A DNA stretch of 63,771 nucleotides, filler included, from an uncultured Gemmatimonadota bacterium (GCA_964576115.1; 4 parts of 4 records of this genome joined end to end with filler, not necessarily neighbours in it), one strand, 5' to 3'. Positions 41,829 to 63,770 are shown, counted from the first letter of the whole stretch. The notes: generated by a model not told the origin, from the sequence alone. Program-made: numbers and translations.

Positions 41829-42162
41829 CCCGCGCTCCAGATCCTCCTGCCAGGCCGATGACCAGGCCGATTCCCTTCCCAGGAACCCGGGCCAGCCATA
41901 ATCCGTTCATACCATAGTACTATATGGTGCGTGGCGCGGGTTGTTTTCATAGTATAATGGCACCGACTCAACCGCGTCCCCGGACGCAGGCCAACTTCCT
42001 GCCCGCGTCCGGCAAACGGACGAGACAGCTCCCGGCGAACGGATCGACAGCATGGCCGAACANNNNNNNNNNNNNNNNNNNNNNNNNNNNNNNNNNNNNN
42101 NNNNNNNNNNNNNNNNNNNNNNNNNNNNNNNNNNNNNNNNNNNNNNNNNNNNNNNNNNNNNN

Positions 42163-43999
42163 GCTACGGGCCGGGATGGAACTGCAGAGCGTCGAGGGCC
42201 TGCCCTCCCTGCCGGCCGTCGACGAGCCGCCCGAAGTCGCCGGGGTCGAGATCGAGGAGGTCGAGGTCCTCGTCATCGGCGCCGGTCCGGCGGGTCTGTC
42301 GGCCGCGATCGAACTGGGCCGGGAGGGGGTGGAAGTCCTCATCGTCGACGACAAGGACCGCCCCGGGGGCAAGCTGGTCCTGCAGACCCACAAGTTCTTC
42401 GGTTCGGTCGAGGACTCGTGGGCGGGCACCCGCGGTTACCAGATCGCGGAGATCCTGGCCGAAGAAGTGGCCGGGCTGCCCACCGTGCAGCTGGCGCTGG
42501 AAACGACCGCGGTGGGGGTCTTCAGCGACCGGATCGTCGGCCTGGTCAGCGGGGGCCGCTACCGCCTGGTGCGCCCGCAGGGCCTGCTCGTGGCCGCCGG
42601 CGCGCGTGAGAAGATGCTCCCCTTCCCCGGCAACACCCTGCCCGGGGTGATCGGCGCCGGGGCTTTCCAGACCCTGGTCAACCGCGACCTGATCCGGCCC
42701 TGCGAGCGGCTGCTGATCGTCGGGGGAGGCAACGTGGGTCTGATCGCCGGGTACCACGCCATCCAGGCCGGCATCGAGGTGGTAGCCCTGATCGAGGCCC
42801 TGCCCCATGTCGGCGGGTACGTGGTCCACGCCGACAAACTGCGCCGGCTGGGCGTGCCGATCTTCACCCGCCACACCGTCACCGCCGCTCACGGCACCGA
42901 TCACGTCGAGGCCGTGACGATCGCCGAACTGGACGAGAACTGGCAGGTCGTCGAGGGCACCGACCGCACTTTCGAGGTGGATACCGTTCTGATCGCCGTC
43001 GGCCTGACCGAGGTCAACGAGTTCGCTCTCAAAGCGGCGGCGTTCGGCCTGCCGGTCCGCAGCGCCGGCGACGCCCAGGAGATCGCCGAGGCTTCGGCGG
43101 CCATGTTCAGCGGCCGGATCGAGGGGCGGGAACTGGCACGTCTGCTGGGCCGCGAGGTCGGGGAGATACCCCGGGAGTGGCGGGAAAAGGTGACGGTCCT
43201 CAAATCCCTGCCCGGCAAGGTGGAGCCCTTCCGGCACCCCGAGCCCGATAGCGGGGTCATGCCGGTGCTGCACTGTCGCCAGGAAGTCCCCTGCAACCCC
43301 TGCACTTCGGTCTGCCCGCAGGGCGCCATCCACACCGAGGACGACACGATTACCGGCCTGCCCTTCTTCGACGAGGGCGCCGGGTGCACCGGATGCATGA
43401 ACTGCGTGGGCATCTGCCCCGCCCTGGCGGTCACCCTGGTCGACTACCGCAATGATCCCGAGCACCCGACCGTGACCCTGCCGTATGAAATCTGGCGCGA
43501 CAAAGTCGAAAAAGGCCACCGGGTCATGATCACCGACGAGGAAGGGGCCGTCCTGGGCGAGTACGAGGTCCAGCGGGTGATGGCGCCGAAGAAATACCCC
43601 GGCACCCTGCTGGTTCAGGTGGCCATGGAACCCGAGAAGGCCAAGCTGGCCGCCGGGGTGTGGGTACAGGAGGCCGACCGCGACCCGCTCGAGGTGTGGC
43701 AGACCGAACCGCTGCCCGACGAGGCCATCGTGTGCCGCTGCGAGCGGGTCACAGCCGGTGAGATCCGGGCCCGGATCCAGGCCGGCCTGCGCGACCTGAA
43801 CGAGATCAAGACGGTCACCCGGGCGGGAATGGGCGCCTGTGGTTCGAAGACCTGCCGACCGATGATCCTGCGCCTGTTCGCCGAAGAGGGGATCGATCCC
43901 GGCGAGGTCACCGACCGCACCGACCGGCCCCTCTTCGTCGAAGTGCCGCTGGGCACCCTGGCCGGTCTGACCGAGGAACAGGATTCCGATCGTGCCTGA
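42163..43999 (+). CDS. FAD oxidoreductase with 2x[4Fe-4S] and BFD-like [2Fe-2S] domains (proline/sarcosine dehydrogenase alpha-like); 5' end in gap
   Basis: GAGPAG, GGKLVLQTHKFFG, GGGNVG, PCNPCTSVCP, CTGCMNCVGICP, CRCE...MGACGSKTC. Confidence 0.8.
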
Positions 44000-45143
44000 A
44001 AGGGATGTCATCATCATCGGAGCCGGCTCGGTCGGCACTCCCCTGGCCCTCGCCCTGGCCGAACGGGGCCTGCGGCCGCTCATCATCGATTCGGCCGCCT
44101 CGACCGGTCAGGGCGAGAACAAACATGCCATCGGCGGGGTGCGGGCCACCCACTCCGACCCGGCCAAGATCCTCGCCTGCCGGCGCTCGATCGAGATCTT
44201 CTCGACCTGGGAGGAGCGCCACGGCGACGATATCGAGTGGCTGCAGGGCGGCTATACCTTCCCGGTCTACCGCGAGCAGGATGAAGCGACCCTGACGGGC
44301 CTCTTTGAGGTCCAGCACGCTCACGGTCTCGAGATCGACTGGGTCGATCCCGACACGATCGCCGAACTGGTGCCGGGCATCGCCGTCGAGGGTCTGCGGG
44401 GGGGCACCCACAGCCCCGGTGACGGGAGCGTCAGCCCCCTGCTGGCCGGCAACGCCTTCTACCGGCGGGCACGGTCTCTGGGGGCCGAATTCCGCTTTCA
44501 CGAGACCGTGCAGCAGATCGCGACCGCCAACGGCCGCGTGACCGGGGTGGTGACCGACCGCGGCACCCATCGGGCACCGGTGGTGGTCAACGCCGCCGGC
44601 CCGAACGCCCGGGCCGTCGGCGCTACGGTCGGTCTCGACCTGCCGGTCCAGCCCGACAGCCACGAAGCGGGAATCACCGAACCGATCGAGCCCTTCTTCC
44701 GGACCATGGTCGTGGATCTGCGCCCCGCCCCCGGCTCGGCCAACTTCTATTTCTACCAGAGCCGCCACGCCCAGGTGGTCTTCTGCCTGACCCCCGATCC
44801 GCCCGTGATCGGGACCGACATCCGCGAGACCTCGGTGTTTTTACCGATGGTGGCCCGCCGGTTGGTGAAATTGCTGCCCCGTCTGCGTCACCTGCGGGTG
44901 CGCCGGGTCTGGCGGGGGCTCTACCCCATGACCCCCGACGGCTCGCCTCTCATCGGACAGGCCGACGGACCCGAGGGTCTGCTGCACGCCGTCGGCATGT
45001 GCGGTCAGGGTCTGATGCTGGGTCCCGGTCTGGCCGAGACGGTAGCCCGCCTCATCACCGGCGAACTCACCGACACTGACCGGATCATCCTGGAAGGTTT
45101 CGCACCCGACCGGGACTTTGCAGGCACCGAAGCCCTGAAGTAG
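43992..45143 (+). CDS. DAO-family FAD oxidoreductase (proline/sarcosine dehydrogenase beta-like)
   Basis: IIIGAGSVG, VNAAG, WRGLYPMTPDGSPLIG, GMCGQGLMLGP; overlaps upstream stop. Confidence 0.8.
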   Translation: MPERDVIIIGAGSVGTPLALALAERGLRPLIIDSAASTGQGENKHAIGGVRATHSDPAKILACRRSIEIFSTWEERHGDDIEWLQGGYTFPVYREQDEATLTGLFEVQHAHGLEIDWVDPDTIAELVPGIAVEGLRGGTHSPGDGSVSPLLAGNAFYRRARSLGAEFRFHETVQQIATANGRVTGVVTDRGTHRAPVVVNAAGPNARAVGATVGLDLPVQPDSHEAGITEPIEPFFRTMVVDLRPAPGSANFYFYQSRHAQVVFCLTPDPPVIGTDIRETSVFLPMVARRLVKLLPRLRHLRVRRVWRGLYPMTPDGSPLIGQADGPEGLLHAVGMCGQGLMLGPGLAETVARLITGELTDTDRIILEGFAPDRDFAGTEALK

Positions 45144-48607: not shown

Positions 48608-49483
48608 TCAGTCGAGCCGGGAGAGCAAACGGTCGAGGGAGGTTTCGTTCAGATCCAGGGCCAGATCGGTTTCGGGATCGGCCCCCAGAGCCAGACCCAG
48701 AAGCTGGGGATAGAGCAGCGTCCCGATCCGGTACTGCGTACCGTACTTTTTGTTCACCTCGTCCTGCATGGTGCCGTACATGAGGTAGCAGGTCGGGCAC
48801 TGCACCACCAGCGCGTCGACCTCGCGCTCGGTGAGATTCTGCAGCTTCTTCCGTACGAGCGCGAACGAGATATCCTTGGCGACCGGGAAAGCCTTGCCCC
48901 CGCAGCACAGGGTCAGGGTCTCGTAGTCGACCGGCTCGGCCCCGGTCAAAGCGATCAGGCGGTGCAGGGTGAATGGCGCGTCGGGGTCATCGGGCCCGTC
49001 GAGGATCGCCTCGGGTCTGAGAGTGTGACAGCCGTAGTGCGGAGCGATGCGGATGCCCGAGAGATCCCTGGCGAGTTCGAGAGCCCGACCGGCGCCCTCG
49101 ATCTCTTCGTAGAGGACGTGGGAAAAGTGCCTGACCCGAACCCCGCCCTCATAGGCCAGATCGAGCGCCCGGAGCCGGTCGTTGACGGCCTCGCGGACGG
49201 TCTCATCCTCCAGTTTCTGCGCCGCATCGGCCAGTACCCCGGTGCAGGTGGGACAGAGCGAGAGGATGTCCAGACCCATCCGGGAAGCCTGGACCAGATT
49301 CACGGCGGCAAGCTGCAGGGCGCCCTCGCCGTCCAGGTCGATCTGACTGAACCCGCAGCAGATGAAATCGGTGCTGTCCACCAGATCGATGCCGAGCCGT
49401 TCGCAGACCCAGCGGGCCGCCACCTCGTACTGCACGACGTGGACCGGGGTCGTACACCCCAGAAAGAGAGCATAGCGGCTCAT
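48608..49483 (-). CDS. hdrB: Heterodisulfide reductase subunit B-like
   Basis: Two CCG domains: FLGC/ICCG/CPTC and HYGCH/LCCGG/CPTC; YPQLLGLALG. Confidence 0.85.
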   Translation of the reverse strand: MSRYALFLGCTTPVHVVQYEVAARWVCERLGIDLVDSTDFICCGFSQIDLDGEGALQLAAVNLVQASRMGLDILSLCPTCTGVLADAAQKLEDETVREAVNDRLRALDLAYEGGVRVRHFSHVLYEEIEGAGRALELARDLSGIRIAPHYGCHTLRPEAILDGPDDPDAPFTLHRLIALTGAEPVDYETLTLCCGGKAFPVAKDISFALVRKKLQNLTEREVDALVVQCPTCYLMYGTMQDEVNKKYGTQYRIGTLLYPQLLGLALGADPETDLALDLNETSLDRLLSRLD

Positions 49484-50076
49484 CGGCGCCGGCGCCTCTC
49501 GACCCTGCGGCCCAGATCGGAGGCTTCGATCACGGCCCGGGCCTTTTCGCCCTCGCAGGCGAGCTCGGGCAGAGAGCGGGCGCGTCGCTTCTCCCGAAGC
49601 GACTCATCGGTGCGGTAAATGACGCCCGTCCGGGCCAGATTGCGGGTCTGGATGATCCAGGGATAGGGCGTGTGGCCCTCCCGGGCCGCCATGTTCTTCA
49701 GGACATTCAGGATGTGGTAGAGCTGGACGTTCTGCGGGCAGTGCTCCTCGCAGCTGTGACAGGCCGTACAGGCCCAGAGATGCGGACTCGACAGAACCGC
49801 GGTTCTCAGACCCAGCTTGACCATCAGGGCCAGCTTGCGGGGATCGAATTCGGGGAAGACCTCGTGGACCGGGCAGCCGGCCGTGCACGAGGCGCAGGCA
49901 TAACAGTGGTTCAGCCCCCGGGCTTCCTCATGACTCATGACCTCGCGCGGGAAATCGGGATCCAGATCGTCAATGGTGAGAGAGGCTTCGGCACCCTCCT
50001 CCTGAGCCTGCCCGGGCCCGTCCCCGGTCTCCGGTTCACGCTTTGGCGGCGGTTTCTGTTTCTTATTCGAGCTCAT
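49480..50076 (-). CDS. hdrC: Heterodisulfide reductase subunit C-like
   Basis: CYACASCTAGCP, PRK, WACTACHSCEEHCPQNV, LKNMA. Confidence 0.85.
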   Translation of the reverse strand: MSSNKKQKPPPKREPETGDGPGQAQEEGAEASLTIDDLDPDFPREVMSHEEARGLNHCYACASCTAGCPVHEVFPEFDPRKLALMVKLGLRTAVLSSPHLWACTACHSCEEHCPQNVQLYHILNVLKNMAAREGHTPYPWIIQTRNLARTGVIYRTDESLREKRRARSLPELACEGEKARAVIEASDLGRRVERRRRR

Positions 50077-50323
50077 CGAGGATCGCCTTCTTCAGCTCCT
50101 CTTTCTCCGGCAGCCCGATGAATTTCAGGATCCCGTTAATGGCGATGGCGGGGACCGACATGATCCCGTATCCGGCGGCCCGCGTCGGGTCGACCGTGAT
50201 ATCCACTTCTTCGACGATCAGCTCGCAGTCGAGCTCGCCGGAGAGGTGCTCGAGCAGGGCCTTGACCGCCGGACAGTCGACACACCCGGGAGAGCTGAAG
50301 TCCTCGATGAACACTTCCTGCAT
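50063..50323 (-). CDS. Small thioredoxin/glutaredoxin-like protein (MJ0307/MTH807-like)
   Basis: FSSPGCVDCP, YGIMSVPAIAING..FIGLP.KEEL; AGGAG RBS. Confidence 0.8.
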   Translation of the reverse strand: MQEVFIEDFSSPGCVDCPAVKALLEHLSGELDCELIVEEVDITVDPTRAAGYGIMSVPAIAINGILKFIGLPEKEELKKAILDELE

Positions 50324-50337
50324 TGACGTCCGACTCC

Positions 50338-52122
50338 TCAGTTTGTCGTGGCTGCCCTGACAAGCACTTCGGGCAGTGAGATCTCGCCCTCTCTCAGTTC
50401 GCCGTCCACCCCCGAGGCGGCGGCCCGGGCCTGGACGATCGCGTTGGGAATGTCCTTGGGACCCTGGGCGGCACCGCAGATATAGATGCCGCGTACGGCG
50501 GTATCCACCGGGCGCAGTTTGGGATGGACCTCCCGGTAAAAACCGCTCTCATCGCGGGCCACGCCCAGAATCGCGGCCAGCTCCCCGGTTCCTTCGGCGG
50601 GGATCATGGCGCAGGAGAGAGCCACCAGGTCCACCTCGAGGTTGAGGTGCCGGCCCAGGTCGGCATCCTCCACCTTCACGATCAGGTTGCCGGAATCGGC
50701 CCTCTCGACGATCTCGCTCGGACGACCCCGGATGAAATGGACCCCCAGTTCGCGCGTCGCCGCGTAGTACTCCTCGTAGTCCTTACCCGGGGTGCGCATG
50801 TCGATGTAGCAGATGTAGACCTCGGCTTCGGGCGCCACCATCCGCTTGATGATCTGGGCGTGTTTGAGGGCGTACATGCAGCACACCCCCGAACAGTAGG
50901 GATTGGTGTTCTCGTCGCGCGAACCCACGCACTGGATCATGAGAATGCGGTCGGGTCGGCAGCCGTCGCCCGGCCGCAGAAGCTCCCCTTTCGTGGGGCC
51001 GTCGATATCCAGAATCCGGGCCAGCTGGTACTGGGTGATGACGTTGGCGTAGCGGTCATAGCCGTAGGAGGTCAGAACCGAGGGGTCGAACTCGTCGAAG
51101 CCGGTGGCCACCACGACGGCCCCGACGGTGAGTTCGATATGCTCTTCCTCTTCCGCGAAATCGATCGCCTCGGTCGGGCAGGCCTTCTCGCACAGGCGGC
51201 AGGCGCCGGTCCGGAAGTAGAGGCAGTTGGCCTCATCGATCGCGGCCTTCTTCGGGATCGCCTGTTCATAGGGGATATAGATGGCTTTGCGCTCCCCCAT
51301 TCCGGCGGCGAAGATCTCGTCGACGACTCGCTGGGGGCAGGCCTCGACGCATTCCCCGCACCCGGTGCATTTCTCTTCGATCACATAACGGGGGCGGCGC
51401 TTCACTCCCACCGTGAAACGACCCACATGGCCCGTGAGACTGACGACCTCGGAGTTTGTCCTCAGGTTGATCCGGGGGTGCATGTTGGCATAGGCGGTCT
51501 TGGGAGCCAGGATACAGGGAGCGCAATCGTTGGTCGGATAGACCTTGTAGAGCAGGCCCATCTTGCCCCCGATCGTCGGCAGGCGTTCCACCAGTTCGAC
51601 CTGATAGCCCTTCTCGGCCAGATCGAGGGCGGCTTCGAGCCCGGCGATCCCGGCGCCGATCACCAGCACCGATTGTTCGGCCTCGATCCGCACGTGCGGC
51701 ACCGGGCGTTTGAGGGCCATCCTCTTCACGGCCAGGGCGATGAGCTGGCGGGCTTTCTCCAGCGCCTCGGCCGGTTCGACCCGCTCGTTGCTCGAGGCCA
51801 TGGTCCATTTCCGGATGTCGATCAGATCCACGAAGGCGGGATCGAGCCCCACCTGTTCGCCGCAGCGCTGGAAGGTCATCAGGTGCAGGCCCGGATCGCA
51901 GGCGGCGACGATGACCCGGTCGAGGTCGTGGTCGGTGATGGCCTGCTTGATCTCTTCCTGGCCGTCTTCGGAGCAGGAGAACTTGTTGTCGACGACGTAG
52001 TCGACCTGGTCCAGCTCGCCCGTGCTCGCGAGCAGAGCCTCGATATCCACCCCTCCGGCGATGTTCTTGCCGCAGTGGCAGATGAAAACCCCGATCCGCT
52101 TCCCCTCCCGGTCACCCGCCAT
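50338..52122 (-). CDS. hdrA: Heterodisulfide reductase subunit A-like, lacking the C-terminal ferredoxin domain
   Basis: VFICHCG.NIA, GAGIAG, YPTNDCAPC, inserted 2x[4Fe-4S], QCVGSRD, YCS.VCCMYALK, HPKLRPVDT, GPKDIP. Confidence 0.9.
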   Translation of the reverse strand: MAGDREGKRIGVFICHCGKNIAGGVDIEALLASTGELDQVDYVVDNKFSCSEDGQEEIKQAITDHDLDRVIVAACDPGLHLMTFQRCGEQVGLDPAFVDLIDIRKWTMASSNERVEPAEALEKARQLIALAVKRMALKRPVPHVRIEAEQSVLVIGAGIAGLEAALDLAEKGYQVELVERLPTIGGKMGLLYKVYPTNDCAPCILAPKTAYANMHPRINLRTNSEVVSLTGHVGRFTVGVKRRPRYVIEEKCTGCGECVEACPQRVVDEIFAAGMGERKAIYIPYEQAIPKKAAIDEANCLYFRTGACRLCEKACPTEAIDFAEEEEHIELTVGAVVVATGFDEFDPSVLTSYGYDRYANVITQYQLARILDIDGPTKGELLRPGDGCRPDRILMIQCVGSRDENTNPYCSGVCCMYALKHAQIIKRMVAPEAEVYICYIDMRTPGKDYEEYYAATRELGVHFIRGRPSEIVERADSGNLIVKVEDADLGRHLNLEVDLVALSCAMIPAEGTGELAAILGVARDESGFYREVHPKLRPVDTAVRGIYICGAAQGPKDIPNAIVQARAAASGVDGELREGEISLPEVLVRAATTN

Positions 52123-52167
52123 GCCGGATCCAGACTCCTGATGAAGTGGTATGAGGCCGGAACATCG

Positions 52168-53139
52168 CTACTGCCGCCCGGTCAGAGATTGGTAGATGTC
52201 GGCCGCCGCCGCCGAGGCCTGCGCCAGAGCCGCGACGACCATCTTCAGCGGACCCGCGGTCACATCCCCGACGGCGTAGATGCCCTCGATATTCGTCCGG
52301 CCGCGGGCGTCGGTGACGATATAGCCTTCTTCATCGACCTTGACGCCGGCGCTTCGAGCGATATCGCTGTTGGGGTTGTCTGTGAGCTGGAAGAAGACCC
52401 CGTCGGCTTCTATGACGGTCTCTTCTCCGGTCTCCCGATCGGCGACCAGAACGCTCTCGACGCTCTCCGAGCCCCGGATTTCTTTCAGCTCGACCTGCTC
52501 GACGACATGGATGCGCCCGGCAGCACTACCGGAGGAATCGTCAGCGGCACTCTCGGCCTCATCGTCTGTGTTGCGCTCGGCTGCGGCTTTCCCGAGCGCC
52601 GGGTGAGACCGGCCGGGGCAGACCGCGGTCACCTCGCTCGCCAGCCCCGCCAGATAGGTGACCACCTCAACGGCCCGCCGGTCGCAGCCCACCACGACCA
52701 CCCGCTTGTCCTTGAAGAACATGCCGTCACAGACCGCGCAGTAGCTCACCCCCCTCCCCCGCAGCTCCGTCTCCCCCGGAATCCCCAGCAGTTCGTGACT
52801 GCGCCCGGTGGCCAGAACGAGGGTTCGCGACCGGTAGCTGCCGCTATCGGTCGTGACGACCTGTTCGCCGCTCCCGGGCTGGATCTCGACCGCTCCCTCG
52901 AACAGTTTGATCTCCACCTCCGCCCGCTGGCTGCGCCGGACCATATCCTCGATCAGATCGCTGCCCGTAGAACCTTCCCGATACCCGGGGAACTGTTCGA
53001 AGCTGGGGATCTCGGAGGCGTTGCCGCCGGGAACGTTCTTTTCCAGAATCAGGGGGGTGAGGCCGTAGGAGGCGGTACTGATGGCCGTCGCGAGACCGGC
53101 CGGGCCGGCCCCGACCACTATGACGTCGTATTCGGACAT
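52168..53139 (-). CDS. trxB: Thioredoxin reductase-like flavoprotein (atypical nucleotide-binding domain)
   Basis: GAGPAG, ATG, GRGVSYCAVCDG, TNIEGIYAVGD; start moved to ATG 53139. Confidence 0.8.
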   Translation of the reverse strand: MSEYDVIVVGAGPAGLATAISTASYGLTPLILEKNVPGGNASEIPSFEQFPGYREGSTGSDLIEDMVRRSQRAEVEIKLFEGAVEIQPGSGEQVVTTDSGSYRSRTLVLATGRSHELLGIPGETELRGRGVSYCAVCDGMFFKDKRVVVVGCDRRAVEVVTYLAGLASEVTAVCPGRSHPALGKAAAERNTDDEAESAADDSSGSAAGRIHVVEQVELKEIRGSESVESVLVADRETGEETVIEADGVFFQLTDNPNSDIARSAGVKVDEEGYIVTDARGRTNIEGIYAVGDVTAGPLKMVVAALAQASAAAADIYQSLTGRQ

Positions 53140-53286
53140 CGCCTGTCTCCCTCGTTTCAACCCCGACGGCTGGCGCAAGCTATCGCTGGAGAATGCCGAT
53201 TACAACCGTATATTCGCCCCCGGACACGCCCCGCTCCCGATCCGCCGCGAAAGACGGGGATCGGACCGCAGCGGCCGGGAAAAACA

Positions 53287-53314
53287 TTGAAATCTACCAT
53301 CGGGCGGGTATGAT
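53287..53314 (+). promoter_or_regulatory. Sigma70-like promoter of the usp gene
   Basis: TTGAAA-N16-TATGAT, followed by AAGGAG RBS. Confidence 0.45.
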
Positions 53315-53348
53315 TGGTCCGGCTGTGGGATAGTCAAGGAGTCAGACA

Positions 53349-59226: not shown

Positions 59227-60561
59227 TCAGGTCCCCCCGATCTGCATCGAGCGCAGGCGCAGGGTCGGCGCGGTCGTGGTGCGGTTCAGATCCAGATCGG
59301 TCCCGATCACCTCGATACCGTTGAACATCTCTTCGGCGGTCGACGCGATGGTGATCCCCTTGACCGGGAAGGTTTTGCGTCCACGGCTGATCCAGAAGCC
59401 CTCGGCCCCGCCGCTGAAGTTGCCGCTCACCGGATTGATGCCGTAACCGGTCACCCCGGTCAGGTAGAGACCGCTCTCCACCCCGGCGACGATCTCGTCG
59501 GGGTCGGTATCGCCGGCCTCGATATAGAAGGCGTGCGACCCGATCCCCGGCAGGCTGGTGAAGCCGCCCCGGGAGGCGTTGCCGGTACTCTGCGTTCCGG
59601 ACCGCTCGGCGGCAATGGTGTTGTACATATAACCCTGCAGCACGCCCCGGTCGACGATGGTGCGACGCTGAGTCGGCACCCCCTCGCCGTCGAAGGGGGC
59701 GCTGGCCAGCCCCCGGGCCCGGGTGCCGTCATCCACGACGGTCATCAGCTCGGTGGCGATTGTCTCCCCCACCCGGCCGGCCAGGAAGCTGGCTCCCTGC
59801 AGGACCCGCTCGCCGTTGATGGCGCCGAGCAGACCGCCCAGCAGGCTCCCCGCCACCCGCGGGTCGAAAACGACCGTAGCACGCTGAGTGCGGACCAGGC
59901 GGGGGTCGAGCATGTCGACAGCCCGGCGGGCGGCCTCGGCGGCGACCTCTTCGGGAGCCGTCAGATCGGCGAAGAAACGCCGGTTGCACGACTCATACCC
60001 CGGACTGCGCTGCTCCCCCTTCTCGGCCACCACGGAGACCCCGTAGCCGACTCCCGAGCTGCGGTAGCTCTTGGCCAGGCCGTGGGAGTTGGCCATGAAG
60101 ACCTCGCCCTCGCCTTCGGTGTAACGGGCTCCGTCGCTGCGTGTGACACCGGTCCGGCTCATGGCCAGAGATTCGACCCGCCGCAGCAGTTCGATCTTCT
60201 CCTCCATCGGGATGGTGGCGATCTGCGGATCGTAGAGACCTTCGACCGCAGTCTGCCCGGGATCGTCGGGCAGGGTGTTGGCGTCGTCGGGAGTCAGATG
60301 CCCGGCGAACTCGATGGCACTCTCCATGGCTTCATCGAGAGCTCCGCGCGAGAGGTCGTTGCAGTGCGCAAAAGCCATCCGGTTCGCCACGAAGACCCTG
60401 ATCCCGACCCCGGTGGAAGAGGATTCCTGGACTGTTTCCACCTCGCCGTTGCGAATCTCCAGACTCAGATTGCGCCCCGTTTCGAGCCAGACCTCGGCGG
60501 CCTCGGCCCCCCTGCCCAGACACCGGTCGATGAGCTGTTCTGTCAGTCTGCCGTAATCCAT
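59227..60561 (-). CDS. pmbA: PmbA/TldE family protein
   Basis: GA.AAEV, PFDGEG, STGNASRG, NPVSGNFSGGAEG; no HExxxH; start moved to 60561. Confidence 0.85.
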   Translation of the reverse strand: MDYGRLTEQLIDRCLGRGAEAAEVWLETGRNLSLEIRNGEVETVQESSSTGVGIRVFVANRMAFAHCNDLSRGALDEAMESAIEFAGHLTPDDANTLPDDPGQTAVEGLYDPQIATIPMEEKIELLRRVESLAMSRTGVTRSDGARYTEGEGEVFMANSHGLAKSYRSSGVGYGVSVVAEKGEQRSPGYESCNRRFFADLTAPEEVAAEAARRAVDMLDPRLVRTQRATVVFDPRVAGSLLGGLLGAINGERVLQGASFLAGRVGETIATELMTVVDDGTRARGLASAPFDGEGVPTQRRTIVDRGVLQGYMYNTIAAERSGTQSTGNASRGGFTSLPGIGSHAFYIEAGDTDPDEIVAGVESGLYLTGVTGYGINPVSGNFSGGAEGFWISRGRKTFPVKGITIASTAEEMFNGIEVIGTDLDLNRTTTAPTLRLRSMQIGGT

Positions 60562-60593
60562 CGTTCTTCTCTCCTCTATTCCGGTTCCGGGTC

Positions 60594-62129
60594 TCAGGCC
60601 CTGCTGCCGCCGACGTTCATGCCGCGGATGCGCACTGTCGGCTGGCCGGCATCCACCTCGGCCGATTGCCCCTTGCCGCAGATTCCGGGGCCGAAGGCGA
60701 GGTCGGTCCCGACCGCATCGATGTTGGCGATCACTTCGAGGCAACTGCCCACCAGAGTGGCGCCCGAGACGGGGTAGGTCTTGCGCCCGTTCTCGATCTG
60801 GTAGGCCTCACGGCAGGTGAAATTGAAGACTCCGGTGATCGGGTTCACGCTCCCCCCGCTCAGGCTCTGCACGTACAGCCCTCGGGGTGTGGAACTCACG
60901 ATCGCCTCGGGATCGGAGGTGCCGGTATCGATGAAGGTATTGGTCATGCGGGGGATGGGAATATAGCGGAAGCTCTCCCGCCGGCCGTTGCCGGTGCGCT
61001 CCTGGCCGATCTGGCGGGCCGAGAGGATGTCGGTCATGTACTTGACGAGCACACCGTCGTCGATCAGGACGTTGCGCTGCATCTGGGTGCCCTCGTCGTC
61101 GAAGTCGGTCGTGCCGCGGTGGTTGGGCAGGCTGCCGTCATCGACCATGGTAAAGACATCGCTGGCGACTTTCTGCCCCAGCTTGCCGGTGAAGGCGCCG
61201 ACTTCGCGGGCGATGTTGTCGGCCTCGAGCGGGTGACCGACCGCCTCGTGGACCAGCACACCCCCCCACCCGTTCTGCATCACCACATCCAGGCGCCCGG
61301 CCGGCGCCTCGCGGGCGTCGAGCATTGCGATCGATTCCCGGGCGGCGGTGCGGGCCACCTCTTCGGGGGGTACCTCGTCGAACATCTCGAATCCGGAGTG
61401 GCGGCTGAGCCGCTCACGGCTCAGGTGGCGCCGGCCGTTGCCCGCCCCGAGAGTCTGGACGATGAAAAAGAGCAGGGGCAGTTCATCGGTCAGGTAGACC
61501 CCCTCGCTGGTGGCGATGATACGCGCACGGACTTCATCGTAGTAACTGATGATCGCCATCTGGATGCGGGGATCGTACTCCAGAGCGGCGGCATCGGCCC
61601 GCTGCATCACGTCGAGACGCCGCTCATCGGCGACCTCGCCCAGGGGGACTTCGACCGTGATGAATGAGTCGCGCGCGGAGAATGCGTCGATCGGCACCGG
61701 CTCGATCGCCCCCGAACCGGTAGCCACGGTCGCGGCCACCTCGGCCGCCCGCCGCAGGTTCTCGGGGGTGATCTCTTCGGTGTAGGCATAGCCGGTCCGA
61801 TCGCCGGCGATCACCCGCACCCCGGCTCCCTGGCTGACCCCCACGGTGGCACTCTTGAAAGTCGATTCCTCCATCTGGATGTTCCGGGAGATGCGGTGTT
61901 CGACATAGACATCGGCGAAATCGCCACCCCCGTCCAGAGCGGTGCGCAAGGTCCGGTTGAGCAGATCGCGGTCAACCTCGACCCCGCTTCCGGCCGACGA
62001 ACCGCAGGCCGAGATGGCACCGAGCACCGTCGGTGCCGCAGCCAGGGCCAGAGAACCGCGCGCGGCGCGGCCCAAGAACTCCCGCCGGGGGATATCGTCA
62101 ACGTAGTACGCGTAGTGCAGCATGTTCAC
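60594..62129 (-). CDS. tldD: TldD metalloprotease with Tat (lipoprotein) signal
   Basis: HEAVGH, DDEG, TGNGRRES, PRMTNT, CGKGQ; N-terminal PRREFL...AISAC. Confidence 0.88.
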   Translation of the reverse strand: MNMLHYAYYVDDIPRREFLGRAARGSLALAAAPTVLGAISACGSSAGSGVEVDRDLLNRTLRTALDGGGDFADVYVEHRISRNIQMEESTFKSATVGVSQGAGVRVIAGDRTGYAYTEEITPENLRRAAEVAATVATGSGAIEPVPIDAFSARDSFITVEVPLGEVADERRLDVMQRADAAALEYDPRIQMAIISYYDEVRARIIATSEGVYLTDELPLLFFIVQTLGAGNGRRHLSRERLSRHSGFEMFDEVPPEEVARTAARESIAMLDAREAPAGRLDVVMQNGWGGVLVHEAVGHPLEADNIAREVGAFTGKLGQKVASDVFTMVDDGSLPNHRGTTDFDDEGTQMQRNVLIDDGVLVKYMTDILSARQIGQERTGNGRRESFRYIPIPRMTNTFIDTGTSDPEAIVSSTPRGLYVQSLSGGSVNPITGVFNFTCREAYQIENGRKTYPVSGATLVGSCLEVIANIDAVGTDLAFGPGICGKGQSAEVDAGQPTVRIRGMNVGGSRA

Positions 62130-62189: not shown

Positions 62190-63770
62190 CTACCAGCGGT
62201 TGTTGTATTTCGACCAGAGGTCGTCGCCGAGCTGCCAGTAGGCAGACACTGTCGAACCGGCCAGCTCGTGGCAGTAGCGGGTCAGGTACTCGCGGGCGGC
62301 GGCAGGATTCTGGCGATAGAGGCGCTGGGCCTCGGCGTCGATCTCGGCCTGCCGGGCGAAGGCCTCGATTTCGATCGGCTCCCAGACCGCCTGCAGGTCG
62401 CTCTTCATTTCTTCGTAGCGCATGTAGGAGAGCTTGCTGGCGCGCCGGAAGGCCCACCAGGCGCAGTCGGTCCGATACCCCGCCCGGCCATCGATCAGAT
62501 ACGACTCGGGCATCTGCGAGATGCCGATGTAGAAAGGCAGGTGCGGGGTGGTGGCCGGGTTGTCGTAACCGAGCCAGACCACCCCGCCGATCGGGTCGGG
62601 GAGCCAGTCGCGCGACTGGGTCACCTGCAGGTAGGTCGCCGCGGGGGAGCAGATGGTACGCTCGCGTTCGATCCCGAACAGGGTCCGATAGTCGCCGCTC
62701 ATGAAGGGATTGGCCACCGGGCTCTTGACGACCTCCCCCCGCCGGTTCACAGAGGTCAGGTTACGGGTCATGTCGAAGGGAGTATCCGCATAGGTGTCAC
62801 GGAAAATGGCCAGGATATCGGCCACCGTGACTTTGTGCTCCGGTTTGACACTGAAAGGGAAGTTCTCCGATTCGGGATGCAGACCGAGCGAGGGAGCCAG
62901 CAGGCTCAGGACCCGCCACTCCCGCCGCCGGCAGTACATGCTGTTGCGGTCTGCGTAGGCGTAGCAGAATTCGAACTCTTCGCCGCTCTCGGGATCCCAC
63001 CAACCCATCTCCTCGGCCAGGCTGAAGACGTTTTCCGAAGCCATGTAGTACTCGGGATCATCGAGGTCGATCCGGCGGATCCGGTGAGCGTTGGCCGACA
63101 CCCCGATCTCGTCGTCGGGGATCCGCACCGCCGCCCAGACCGCCCCGACCTTTCCCCGTCCGGGGCCGAGAATCTCGAAGTGCCAGACCTCTTTCGGATC
63201 GGCGAAGGTAAAGCACTCGCCCCAGTCGTTGTAGCCGTACTCCCGGGTCAGCTCGTCGGCGACCCGGATCGCTTCGCGGGCGGTACGGGCCCGCTCGAGA
63301 ACGAGCCGGTAGAGTTCGGGGGCATCGATCAGACCGTCGGGGCTCATCAGCTCGCGCTTGCCCCCGGTCGTGGTCTCGCCGATGGCGAGCTGGTGCTCGT
63401 TCATGACCGGATAGGCGGTGTTCATGAAGCTGTAGGTCTCGCGTACCTGGGGAATTTCTCCGACGGCGATCCTTTCCGGATCGTCGGGGCCCGAAGTCCG
63501 CTTGGGCCGCATCCAGATCGGAGCCGTCGCACCCGCGGGGTGCTCGCGGTGCGGTTCGATCGAGATCCAGGTGCGGTCGGTGCCCGAGTCGCACGAGTGC
63601 GAGGTCATGGTCGAACCGTCGGCCGAGGCCAGACGGCCGACCAGGATCGAGGTGCAGCTCTCGCCGTAGAAGACGGAATCGATCGCGGACTTCTCGCGCG
63701 GTACGATCAGAACGAGAGCCAGAACGAGCAGCGGCAGAGACGCCGCCAGGAACCAGCGTCGGCGGGAGAT
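62190..63770 (-). CDS. C69-family (Ntn) dipeptidase, secreted; start lies beyond window
   Basis: Frame extends upstream of 63608 as ISRRRWFLAASLPLLVLALVL...ESCTSILVGRLASADGSTMTSH; MNEHQLAIGET, TAREAI, WAAVRIPDD. Confidence 0.85.
   Translation of the reverse strand: MSRRRWFLAASLPLLVLALVLIVPREKSAIDSVFYGESCTSILVGRLASADGSTMTSHSCDSGTDRTWISIEPHREHPAGATAPIWMRPKRTSGPDDPERIAVGEIPQVRETYSFMNTAYPVMNEHQLAIGETTTGGKRELMSPDGLIDAPELYRLVLERARTAREAIRVADELTREYGYNDWGECFTFADPKEVWHFEILGPGRGKVGAVWAAVRIPDDEIGVSANAHRIRRIDLDDPEYYMASENVFSLAEEMGWWDPESGEEFEFCYAYADRNSMYCRRREWRVLSLLAPSLGLHPESENFPFSVKPEHKVTVADILAIFRDTYADTPFDMTRNLTSVNRRGEVVKSPVANPFMSGDYRTLFGIERERTICSPAATYLQVTQSRDWLPDPIGGVVWLGYDNPATTPHLPFYIGISQMPESYLIDGRAGYRTDCAWWAFRRASKLSYMRYEEMKSDLQAVWEPIEIEAFARQAEIDAEAQRLYRQNPAAAREYLTRYCHELAGSTVSAYWQLGDDLWSKYNNRW

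Follow-up and report, generated by a model that had tools for sequence, protein, structure and literature searches.

A conserved gene cluster joins a heterodisulfide reductase to a thioredoxin and a thioredoxin reductase-like protein

Five co-oriented genes lie on the minus strand between positions 48608 and 53139 of the 63.8-kb stretch of DNA analyzed here (the window), as proposed in the original prediction, and the families to which it assigned them hold. In gene order, they code for a thioredoxin reductase (TrxR)-like flavoprotein (52168 to 53139; 323 residues from the ATG; Pfam Pyr_redox_2, 9.4e-41, and TRX_reduct), an HdrA (50338 to 52122; 594 residues; matched by the HdrA models), a small thioredoxin (Trx) of the MJ0307 type (50063 to 50323; 86 residues; Thioredoxin_3, 5.3e-13; active site SPGCVDCP), an HdrC (49480 to 50076; 198 residues) and an HdrB (48608 to 49483; 291 residues; two stretches of Pfam CCG). 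HdrC contains the CxxCxxCxxxCP motif twice and is extended at its N terminus by a low-complexity stretch; this long N terminus is also present in the closest relative, L001. The open reading frame (ORF) call for trxR reaches a TTG codon at 53178; the ATG was taken as the start because the homologues begin there.

The junctions are as previously described: the ATG of trx lies 14 nt past the hdrA stop codon, trx and hdrC overlap by 14 nt, and hdrC and hdrB share an ATGA. The spacing from the trxR stop codon to the hdrA ATG, read from the sequence, is 45 nt. An M61 peptidase gene converges with hdrB and a universal stress protein gene (usp) diverges from trxR, both as claimed. The trxR-usp intergenic region (53140 to 53348) contains promoter-like hexamers on both strands, at 53337 to 53310 on the minus strand and 53287 to 53314 on the plus strand, weak matches from a consensus scan only. 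The reported lack of mvhD was borne out, as tblastn found no MvhD in the whole window, nor any DsrC or additional Hdr genes. Six ORFs scanned within approximately 10 kb of the module code for TPR, MacB/FtsX, MATE, DAO-type oxidoreductase, Pyr_redox_2+BFD and DUF5686 proteins, and a PmbA/TldD pair and a C69 peptidase are encoded farther away. Sediment and seawater metagenomes include four DNA runs that contain the stretch and from which it may have come; no RNA run is listed with it.

The TrxR-like protein keeps the FAD-binding GxGxxG and the redox-active CAVC, with G10, G12, G15, C134 and C137 invariant. Its alignment to solved TrxRs and 28 module homologues showed that the window protein lacks both NADPH motifs: GCDRRA occupies the GxGxxA (GGGDSA) site and CPGRSH the HRRxxxR site, and the former NADPH domain bears an acidic insert specific to the window. 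All 23 full-length bacterial rows have degenerate NADPH motifs together with invariant GxGxxG, CAVCD and GD, and the CxxC is conserved in 28/28 homologues. This pattern indicates a protein that is under selection without using NADPH in the usual manner. Its TIGR01292 score, 249.3 bits, is below the cut-off of 343.45. The module TrxRs of Bathyarchaeia, however, keep canonical NADPH motifs. Thus, to call the system pyridine-nucleotide-independent, as had been done, is reasonable for the window and does not apply to the family in general. In addition, loss of the classical motifs may leave NADH or F420H2 as a donor for TrxR.

In a phylogenetic tree, the module TrxRs, that of the window included, form one clade (support 100/99); the bacterial ones are again one clade (100/100), and the NADPH-competent proteins of Bathyarchaeia are basal. 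This topology suggests that the NADPH site was lost once, in a lineage already linked to Hdr. The tree did not include sequences of FFTR, the ferredoxin-dependent type that we take structures 6GNA to 6GND to represent; 5J60 is presumably a deeply rooted NADPH-independent type, and the PDB rows say just “Thioredoxin reductase.” Four bacterial genomes have a canonical TrxR (337 to 415 bits) besides the module copy (278 to 288 bits), arguing that the latter is a specialized second system. The canonical paralogues of the related genomes keep both NADPH motifs, and other TrxR-like paralogues devoid of those motifs are found away from Hdr genes (L090 and L091). The complete Bathyarchaeial genome G002 has no TrxR other than that of the module, and there an ordinary NADPH-Trx system may merely have been placed beside HdrA. 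Fusions of TrxR to Thioredoxin_3 exist elsewhere (the top 3 of 54 matches to longer proteins) and support, at the family level, Trx as the partner of TrxR. None of the 54 is a fusion of TrxR to an Hdr domain, which is a weak negative.

The HdrA of the window has an N-terminal cluster domain, an FAD domain with the TrxR fold and an inserted two-cluster ferredoxin domain, and it also retains the cluster that leads on to HdrC. It aligns to residues 2 to 576 of the 654 residues of 5ODC_A (E value of 6e-169), with the Cys197 region kept, and scores 678.8 bits with the NCBIfam HdrA2 model, below the cut-off of 1100. Because the match stops at residue 576, the C-terminal ferredoxin domain of approximately 78 residues is missing. 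All 31 HdrAs of the clade with an intact C-terminal end likewise stop 10 to 25 residues past the equivalent of position 576, the one from L027 being cut by a contig end. In methanogen enzymes that domain is the route by which Mvh/MvhD feeds electrons into HdrA, and its loss means that this entry route is gone. Cysteines C15, C17, C50, C75, C200, C203, C252-C262, C300-C315 and C398-C415 are conserved in 30 to 32 of 31 to 32 rows. In the inserted ferredoxin domain, the second cluster motif has a Cx7C spacing, which was rejected as a mark of the clade because 13/49 other HdrAs have 7 or 8 residues there. The equivalent of Lys409 is present in 32/32 clade HdrAs and in all others compared, whereas that of Glu356 is Ala in 31/32 (Ala368 in the window) and Gly in 1/32, with Glu in 46/49 other HdrAs. 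According to PMC12054007, the K409/E356 pair at the flavin N5 is a proposed marker of bifurcating HdrA.

The nearest solved structures to the small Trx are 1NHO (3.7e-19) and 1FO5 (2.5e-17), and C14 and C17 are conserved in 28/28 sequences. The protein matches the TIGR00411 family in fold and CxxC and differs in its active-site dipeptide, scoring 78.6 bits for a cut-off of 92.75. No fusion of this Trx into a longer protein was found at an E value of 1e-10 or better, also a weak negative. HdrC has eight Cys residues in two 4Fe-4S motifs, conserved in 25/25 rows, and scores 79.2 bits with TIGR03290 (cut-off of 160). The two CCG domains of HdrB hold all ten Cys residues of the two non-cubane [4Fe-4S] sites, conserved in 23/23 rows; the protein aligns to 5ODC_B and 9SFI_C at approximately 1e-52 and scores 202.9 bits with TIGR03288 (cut-off of 345.15). 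HdrA, HdrB and HdrC thus all fall under the NCBIfam equivalog cut-offs for subunits of CoB-CoM heterodisulfide reductase.

The neighborhood search suggested for this arrangement found it in 31 genome loci and approximately 66 metagenome loci from many phyla. Where HdrA is at least 62% identical to that of the window, 31/31 genome loci carry the partner set as far as the contigs allow: TrxR is present in 29, absent from one and indeterminate in one, and Trx is present in 27, the remaining four being contig ends or an N-run. Where HdrA is at most 51% identical, none of 49 loci has TrxR or Trx. Conversely, a search of metagenomes from the Trx side found HdrA directly upstream in 66 of the 69 loci with room for it, and TrxR upstream in 34/34. 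The layout is therefore far beyond chance, and the thioredoxin pair belongs with the Hdr genes to a single conserved unit that is inherited together across phyla.

The constant core of that unit is trxR, hdrA and trx. The position of hdrCB varies, since these genes may follow trx (type 1), precede hdrA (type 2) or be locally absent. In the metagenomes, hdrC is directly downstream of trx in 42 of the 71 loci with room, and type 2 order, in which trx still lies directly behind hdrA, occurs in L023 and 15 metagenome loci. One locus, L021, reads hdrA-trx-hdrC-hdrB with no trxR within 900 nt upstream. In three Bathyarchaeia genomes, trxR-hdrA-trx is present and the module HdrB has no orthologue, the best matches being at the paralogue level (46 to 47%). 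A single clade of type 1 and type 2 HdrBs is disfavored (p-AU of 0.024, in a quick tree), which argues that they are different lineages, and Trx remains 60 to 76% identical across the types. Beyond the five genes there is no constant neighbor, the commonest being a methyltransferase gene in 8/32 loci. Additional thioredoxin-family genes are close by in 14/31 related loci, with AhpD/CMD-like or Trx-Grx genes in some.

Genome-wide questions, concerning MvhD, DsrC and a second TrxR, were answered from related genomes. Four of five have MvhD genes elsewhere, and no match to MvhD was obtained in the complete Omnitrophota genome G001, which carries the module. DsrC was discarded as a candidate partner of the module, being present in only two of the five.

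Our tentative interpretation, which we hold at somewhat below even confidence, is that the five genes code for a single soluble redox module whose iron-sulfur/flavin chain, of the Hdr type, replaces NADPH as the partner of TrxR. Low-potential electrons would enter at the inserted ferredoxin domain of HdrA, most likely from ferredoxin, a donor proposed only because this domain is retained. They would pass from HdrA to the flavin of TrxR, then to the CAVC and to the small Trx, which once reduced would in turn reduce protein disulfides. FFTR provides a precedent for the reduction of a TrxR flavin by an iron-sulfur protein. The same flavin might be served by HdrBC as another port, for thiols or disulfides. 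Instead of bifurcating, the complex may simply conduct electrons like a wire. The model leaves the role of HdrBC unexplained. A structure prediction of the HdrA/TrxR-like pair, for which controls were not folded, gave a score of 0.00 in both runs and was given no weight in either direction.

The original prediction had cast the small Trx as the disulfide substrate or the donor of HdrB. In such a model, Trx, as disulfide or dithiol, would take the place of CoM-S-S-CoB at the non-cubane clusters, and the TrxR-like protein would be a second route to Trx. The position of trx between hdrA and hdrC, overlapping the latter, in the window and in type 1 loci is consistent with this proposal, as are the frequency of hdrC downstream of trx in metagenomes and the scores of all five proteins under the curated equivalog cut-offs. 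The ten cluster Cys residues of HdrB also call for some thiol or disulfide substrate, and HdrBC must be needed, since it accompanies the core even in loci where it is of another lineage. However, trx stays behind hdrA when the gene order changes, three Bathyarchaeia genomes do without an orthologue of the module HdrB, and Trx is well conserved between loci whose HdrBs are of two lineages. With hdrCB moved or absent, the proposal is weakened. Moreover, except at L021, the module comes with its own TrxR, in which the CxxC is intact. HdrB binds both sulfurs of a small heterodisulfide in a pocket between its two clusters, for which the helix-capping CxxC of a folded Trx would be a poor fit. We thus consider the proposal unsupported and unlikely, although it retains more than a marginal chance.

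A rather improbable alternative is that the two systems are separate, i.e., that an ordinary TrxR/Trx pair fed by NADH, F420H2 or, like FFTR, free ferredoxin is only cotranscribed with an HdrABC of unrelated substrate, for instance in a stress or thiol-homeostasis regulon. Stand-alone NADPH-independent TrxRs are known, and the FFTR structures 6GNA to 6GND are among the structure matches. TrxR-like paralogues without NADPH motifs away from Hdr genes, the thiol-redox neighbors in relatives, the divergent usp of the window and, weakly, the lack of any TrxR-Hdr or Trx-Hdr fusion among those found also fit with it. Nevertheless, the trxR-hdrA-trx order and tight coupling are kept in bacteria and archaea, beyond what is usual for coregulated genes. 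The changes specific to the HdrA clade, absence of the C-terminal domain and replacement of the Glu356 equivalent, coincide with the partnership. The FFTR match is also weaker (3e-25, N-terminal half only) than those of NADPH enzymes (1e-47).

Electrons might also flow in the opposite direction. Reduced Trx would then be a mid-potential donor that docks where the C-terminal ferredoxin domain was lost. From it the HdrA flavin would receive two electrons and bifurcate them, one branch leading to ferredoxin and the other to a disulfide of higher potential at HdrB; Trx would be kept reduced by NADPH through the module TrxR in archaea or a housekeeping TrxR in bacteria. This scenario seems improbable to us. 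A Trx gene of 86 to 87 codons does lie exactly at the 3′ site of the missing domain in 66/69 loci, the Mvh entry route is lost, G001 has no MvhD at all, and the module still has the other three redox ports of a bifurcating Hdr. The NADPH motifs of the basal archaeal TrxRs and the canonical TrxRs of module-bearing bacteria would account for the supply of reduced Trx. In contrast, the residue equivalent to Glu356, part of the bifurcation marker proposed in PMC12054007, is Ala or Gly in 32/32 HdrAs, and the scenario has no role for a conserved bacterial TrxR unable to bind NADPH.

Still more doubtful is a reading in which Trx, in the place of the lost C-terminal domain, is a stoichiometric partner of HdrA and exchanges two electrons directly with its flavin, its protein dithiol acting as a mid-potential port that links the thiol pool, the ferredoxin pool and the HdrB disulfide, and the NADPH-less TrxR as a built-in second flavin; if true, disulfide machines built on flavin and iron-sulfur centers would gain a new class, and Hdr its first defined substrate outside methanogens.

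Homologues of HdrABC are common among anaerobes that are not methanogens. [quoted passage not shown] An Hdr clade locked to Trx and TrxR across bacterial and archaeal phyla offers concrete, clonable candidate partners, and the module may show what Hdr enzymes do outside methanogens. If the Hdr-coupled, NADPH-independent thioredoxin system that we favor is real, strict sediment anaerobes would have a further way to power their thioredoxin system besides NADPH, F420H2 and free ferredoxin. The single loss of the NADPH site in an already Hdr-linked lineage would be a natural experiment on a flavoenzyme changing its electron source.

The claim that no characterized system has the trxR-hdrA-trx-hdrCB layout withstood a search of largely open-access full-text articles, in which none is described. 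HdrA(BC) modules are reportedly the subject of a review by Appel et al. in 2021. With the MvhADG-HdrABC and Fdh/Elp-Hdr complexes of methanogens (5ODC, 9SFI, 8RVU and 7BKB), the module shares the HdrA fold, all cluster Cys residues, the Cys197 region and Lys409, and its HdrB aligns end to end. Unlike theirs, its HdrA is devoid of the C-terminal ferredoxin domain and carries Ala for Glu356, its three Hdr subunits score under the CoB-CoM equivalog cut-offs, and its partners are TrxR and Trx; the operon codes for neither a hydrogenase nor an MvhD or Fdh partner. The nearest outgroups of the module HdrA, L029 (51% identity) and L030 (47%), point to the N-terminal half of type II double HdrA, a class taken from PMC12054007 and exemplified by L030. 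Both similarly lack Glu356, and the N-terminal half in L030 does not itself have a C-terminal ferredoxin domain. In L030, however, a second HdrA is fused to this half, which is encoded beside FdhA-like, MvhD and hydrogenase genes, with no TrxR or Trx.

The module TrxR shares its fold, length, FAD motifs and CAVCD with low-Mr NADPH TrxRs (TIGR01292; 7AAW and 1TDE), its best solved match being at 1.2e-47, but differs by GCDRRA and CPGRSH, the extra acidic insert and its score (249 versus 343 bits). The module Trx is of the same size and fold family as MJ0307 and MTH807 (1FO5 and 1NHO), with the CxxC at the matching position and a likeness of approximately 40 to 50% by eye. In contrast to these proteins, it is encoded behind hdrA, its active site is C-V-D/G-C or C-A-N-C rather than CPHC or CPYC, and it falls below the TIGR00411 cut-off. 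Lastly, FFTR and the 5J60 type combine the TrxR fold and a CxxC with the lack of a pyridine-nucleotide fingerprint, as does the TrxR of the window. The match to 6GNA nevertheless covers just residues 1 to 173 (3.3e-25), weaker than those to NADPH enzymes, and the module TrxRs are, in the tree built without FFTR, their own clade with NADPH motifs in its basal members. FFTR and the 5J60 type act alone with free ferredoxin, whereas the trxR gene of the module is locked to hdrA.

The five genes occupy 48608-53139 on the minus strand, in the order trxR-hdrA-trx-hdrC-hdrB, and form a unit. Their ORFs encode a TrxR-like protein of 323 aa, starting at the ATG at 53139, followed by HdrA (594 aa), a small Trx (86 aa), HdrC (198 aa) and HdrB (291 aa). 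In the window sequence, hdrA starts 45 nt after the trxR stop and trx 14 nt after the hdrA stop, trx overlaps hdrC by 14 nt, and an ATGA is common to hdrC and hdrB, bearing out the junctions of the original prediction. Pfam and NCBIfam assigned the expected families to all five proteins, with scores below the curated equivalog cut-offs of their NCBIfam models (TrxR-like, TRX_reduct [TIGR01292], 249 bits versus 343; HdrA, HdrA2 model, 679 versus 1100; Trx, MJ0307 family model, 78.6 versus 92.75; HdrC, TIGR03290, 79 versus 160; HdrB, TIGR03288, 203 versus 345).

The module is flanked by a gene for an M61 peptidase, convergent with hdrB, and by a divergent usp gene, and G+C content is even across the region. 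As had been claimed for its immediate surroundings, there is no mvhD; tblastn detected no MvhD, DsrC or additional Hdr gene in the entire 63.8-kb window. Farther neighbors encode TPR, MacB/FtsX and MATE proteins, a DAO-type oxidoreductase, a Pyr_redox_2+BFD protein and peptidases. At 41924-45143 on the plus strand, the gene for the Pyr_redox_2 and BFD-like [2Fe-2S] protein overlaps the start of the DAO-family FAD oxidoreductase gene by 8 nt, a pair resembling an amine or opine-type dehydrogenase of two subunits. Tandem PmbA/TldD-family metallopeptidase genes are found at 59227-62129 (minus strand), followed by a C69 peptidase gene at 62190-63608.

We scanned species-representative genomes for HdrA, placed the five window proteins at the resulting 80 loci by tblastn, and called ORFs. 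HdrA is 62 to 92% identical to that of the window in 31 loci (L001-L028, L031, L032 and L035) and at most 51% identical in the other 49. The arrangement proved to be conserved: the partners accompany the 31 close HdrAs as far as the contigs allow, and tblastn with the window proteins found neither TrxR nor Trx in any of the 49 distant loci. Among the close loci, TrxR is present in 29, counting L001, where only its last 37 residues remain at a contig edge; it is absent from L021, and L031 could not be judged. Trx is present in 27; of the remaining four, three are cut by contig ends and one (L024) by an N-run. HdrC was found in 24 and HdrB in 22; the loci without them are contig ends, except for Bathyarchaeia loci L022, L028 and L031.

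The nearest relative, L001, is from Gemmatimonadota (HdrA 92% identical). The other hosts, as labeled, are Aminicenantes, Planctomycetia, “Eubacteriales,” Acidobacteriota, Omnitrophota, Auribacterota, Desulfobacteraceae, Bathyarchaeia and one Methanobacteriota MAG; all 31 loci come from MAGs, none from a cultured host. The Methanobacteriota-labeled MAG (L021:1-902) carries a bacterial-type hdrA-trx-hdrC-hdrB without trxR upstream, a 628-nt gap and then an opposite-strand ORF standing in its place. In the small phylum that includes genome G003, two of nine genomes have a module-type HdrA and all nine have other HdrAs. Ten other HdrA matches, in G003 and G006-G013, each contain a single in-frame TGA, suggestive of selenocysteine-containing paralogues.

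A small-Trx alignment, used to scan metagenome contigs, gave a further 80 loci; L128 among them matches the window exactly and is therefore not independent. Of the 69 loci that extend at least 600 nt upstream of trx, 66 encode a module-type HdrA directly upstream; the exceptions, L201, L203 and L204, have a module-like small Trx (62 to 65% identical) and no HdrA in 1.1 to 2.2 kb upstream. Of the loci with HdrA, 34 extend at least 2900 nt upstream, and all of these have a TrxR. Where at least 700 nt were available downstream, hdrC directly follows trx, as in the window (type 1), in 42 of 71 loci; 15 of the other 29 have hdrB upstream of hdrA (type 2, trxR-hdrC-hdrB-hdrA-trx). The constant feature is therefore trxR ... 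hdrA-trx, and the position of hdrCB varies.

HdrBC is also tied more loosely than the core. In a quick 62-row HdrB tree, type-1 (27 rows) and type-2 (9 rows) proteins each form one starred clade, the latter among archaeal paralogues, and constraining the two to a single clade lowers the log-likelihood by 27.9 units (p-AU 0.024). Over this divide, Trx remains 60 to 76% and HdrA 62 to 70% identical to the window proteins. The core thus appears to have retained, or acquired anew, an HdrBC pair with another origin, which argues that HdrBC is needed without implying co-evolution of the pair with Trx. Three incomplete MAGs, the sources of L022, L028 and L031, lack an orthologue of the HdrB of type-2 modules; their top matches are 46 to 47% identical, the paralogue level in genomes whose own HdrB orthologue reaches 87 to 100%. 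Cluster cysteines are conserved in HdrC (8), HdrB (10) and throughout HdrA. The original prediction, that Trx exchanges electrons at HdrB, appears unlikely.

The TrxR-like protein has lost its NADPH site and remains under selection. Its FAD GxGxxG, CAVCD and C-terminal GD motifs are invariant in the alignment, and the CxxC is kept in 28 of 28 proteins. Relative to solved NADPH enzymes, GGGDSA has become GCDRRA and HRRDTLRA has become CPGRSHPAL in the window protein, and both motifs are degenerate in all 23 full-length bacterial module TrxRs; the four Bathyarchaeial rows are canonical (GGG(N/D)SA and HR(R/K)xQLRAE). In a careful tree of 34 rows from the same genomes, the 27 module TrxRs group together (support 100/99), separate from 5 canonical enzymes and 2 other paralogues; within this group the 23 bacterial rows are a clade of their own (100/100) and the archaeal rows are basal. 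With the root set at the midpoint between module and canonical enzymes rather than inferred, the NADPH site was lost once, inside a lineage already linked to HdrA.

A TIGR01292 census found four bacterial genomes with a canonical TrxR (337 to 415 bits) beside the module copy (278 to 288 bits); in a complete Bathyarchaeon genome, the module TrxR is the sole one and scores 357 bits, above the cut-off. The window protein sits on a long branch (0.9) and carries, at about 52511-52610 (minus strand), two extra acidic, Ser/Ala-rich stretches, one of about 6 residues and one of about 10, in what was the NADPH domain; both are absent from all 28 other module TrxRs. Genomes G004 and G001 each have a third TrxR-like paralogue without NADPH motifs (L090 and L091), not beside Hdr genes. 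That the thioredoxin and Hdr proteins are co-regulated but separate systems is unlikely. A fusion search found no TrxR or Trx fused to an Hdr subunit, a weak negative, and TrxR fused to a Thioredoxin_3 domain occurs elsewhere.

Module HdrA lacks the Mvh-facing domain and Glu356 and retains its cluster sets. It aligns to residues 2-576 of the 654 of 5ODC_A, from the methanogen MvhADG-HdrABC structure, and so has no C-terminal ferredoxin domain; all clade HdrAs with an intact C-terminal end stop shortly past the same point. That domain is the path from MvhD to the flavin according to PMC9012536. The Lys409 equivalent is kept in 32 of 32 clade HdrAs, and Glu356 is replaced by Ala in 31 and Gly in one. 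Glu is present in 46 of 49 other HdrAs, the exceptions including the nearest outgroups, L029 and L030. As the K409/E356 pair is a proposed mark of bifurcating HdrA in PMC12054007, the module flavin may be non-bifurcating, which is a suggestion and not a test. Trx as a mid-potential donor to a bifurcating HdrA is also unlikely.

MvhD genes occur elsewhere in four of five related genomes, the complete Omnitrophota genome having none, and DsrC occurs in two of the five. The L030 HdrA, which likewise has Ala in place of Glu356, makes up the N-terminal half of a double HdrA of 1092 aa. The cluster around it (L030:3568-13283) also encodes an FdhA-like molybdopterin protein, HdrCB, MvhD and proteins that by eye resemble hydrogenase subunits.

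The solved structures nearest to the module Trx are small archaeal thioredoxins (1NHO and 1FO5); its active-site motif is SPGC(V/A/T)(G/D/N)CP, CVDC in the window. No extra neighbor is general across related loci. An additional thioredoxin-family gene is present in 14 of 31, and some have Trx-Grx fusions, AhpD/CMD-like CxxC proteins or a methyltransferase, a set more indicative of a role in maintaining thiol redox state than of a catabolic pathway. Proteins of about 350 aa (L004:5264-6328, L005:10522-11571, L035:10519-11574, L032:4588-5643 and the cut L015:8669-9154) have a C-terminal classical thioredoxin domain (PF00085, residues 253-351) and roughly 250 N-terminal residues without a Pfam match. 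Their genes lie directly 3′ of hdrB, or upstream of trxR in L032, and the proteins are candidates for another partner or target. AhpD/CMD-like genes adjoin five modules (L006-L008, L025 and L026; e.g., L008:5470-5781) and small SAM methyltransferase genes eight (L003, L004, L011, L015, L018, L021, L032 and L035; e.g., L035:509-1066); neither is in the window.

Our leading, still tentative reading is that the Hdr iron-sulfur chain would serve the TrxR flavin, which would then reduce the small Trx. Electrons would probably come from ferredoxin, via the inserted ferredoxin domain that HdrA retains, and HdrBC would provide a second thiol/disulfide port.

We found no description of the trxR-hdrA-trx-hdrCB layout in the full-text literature, supplements excluded, or in the available text of PMC12054007 and PMC9012536. 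By alignment, module HdrA corresponds to a class without a C-terminal ferredoxin domain in the PMC12054007 scheme, and all parts of the module are members of known families.
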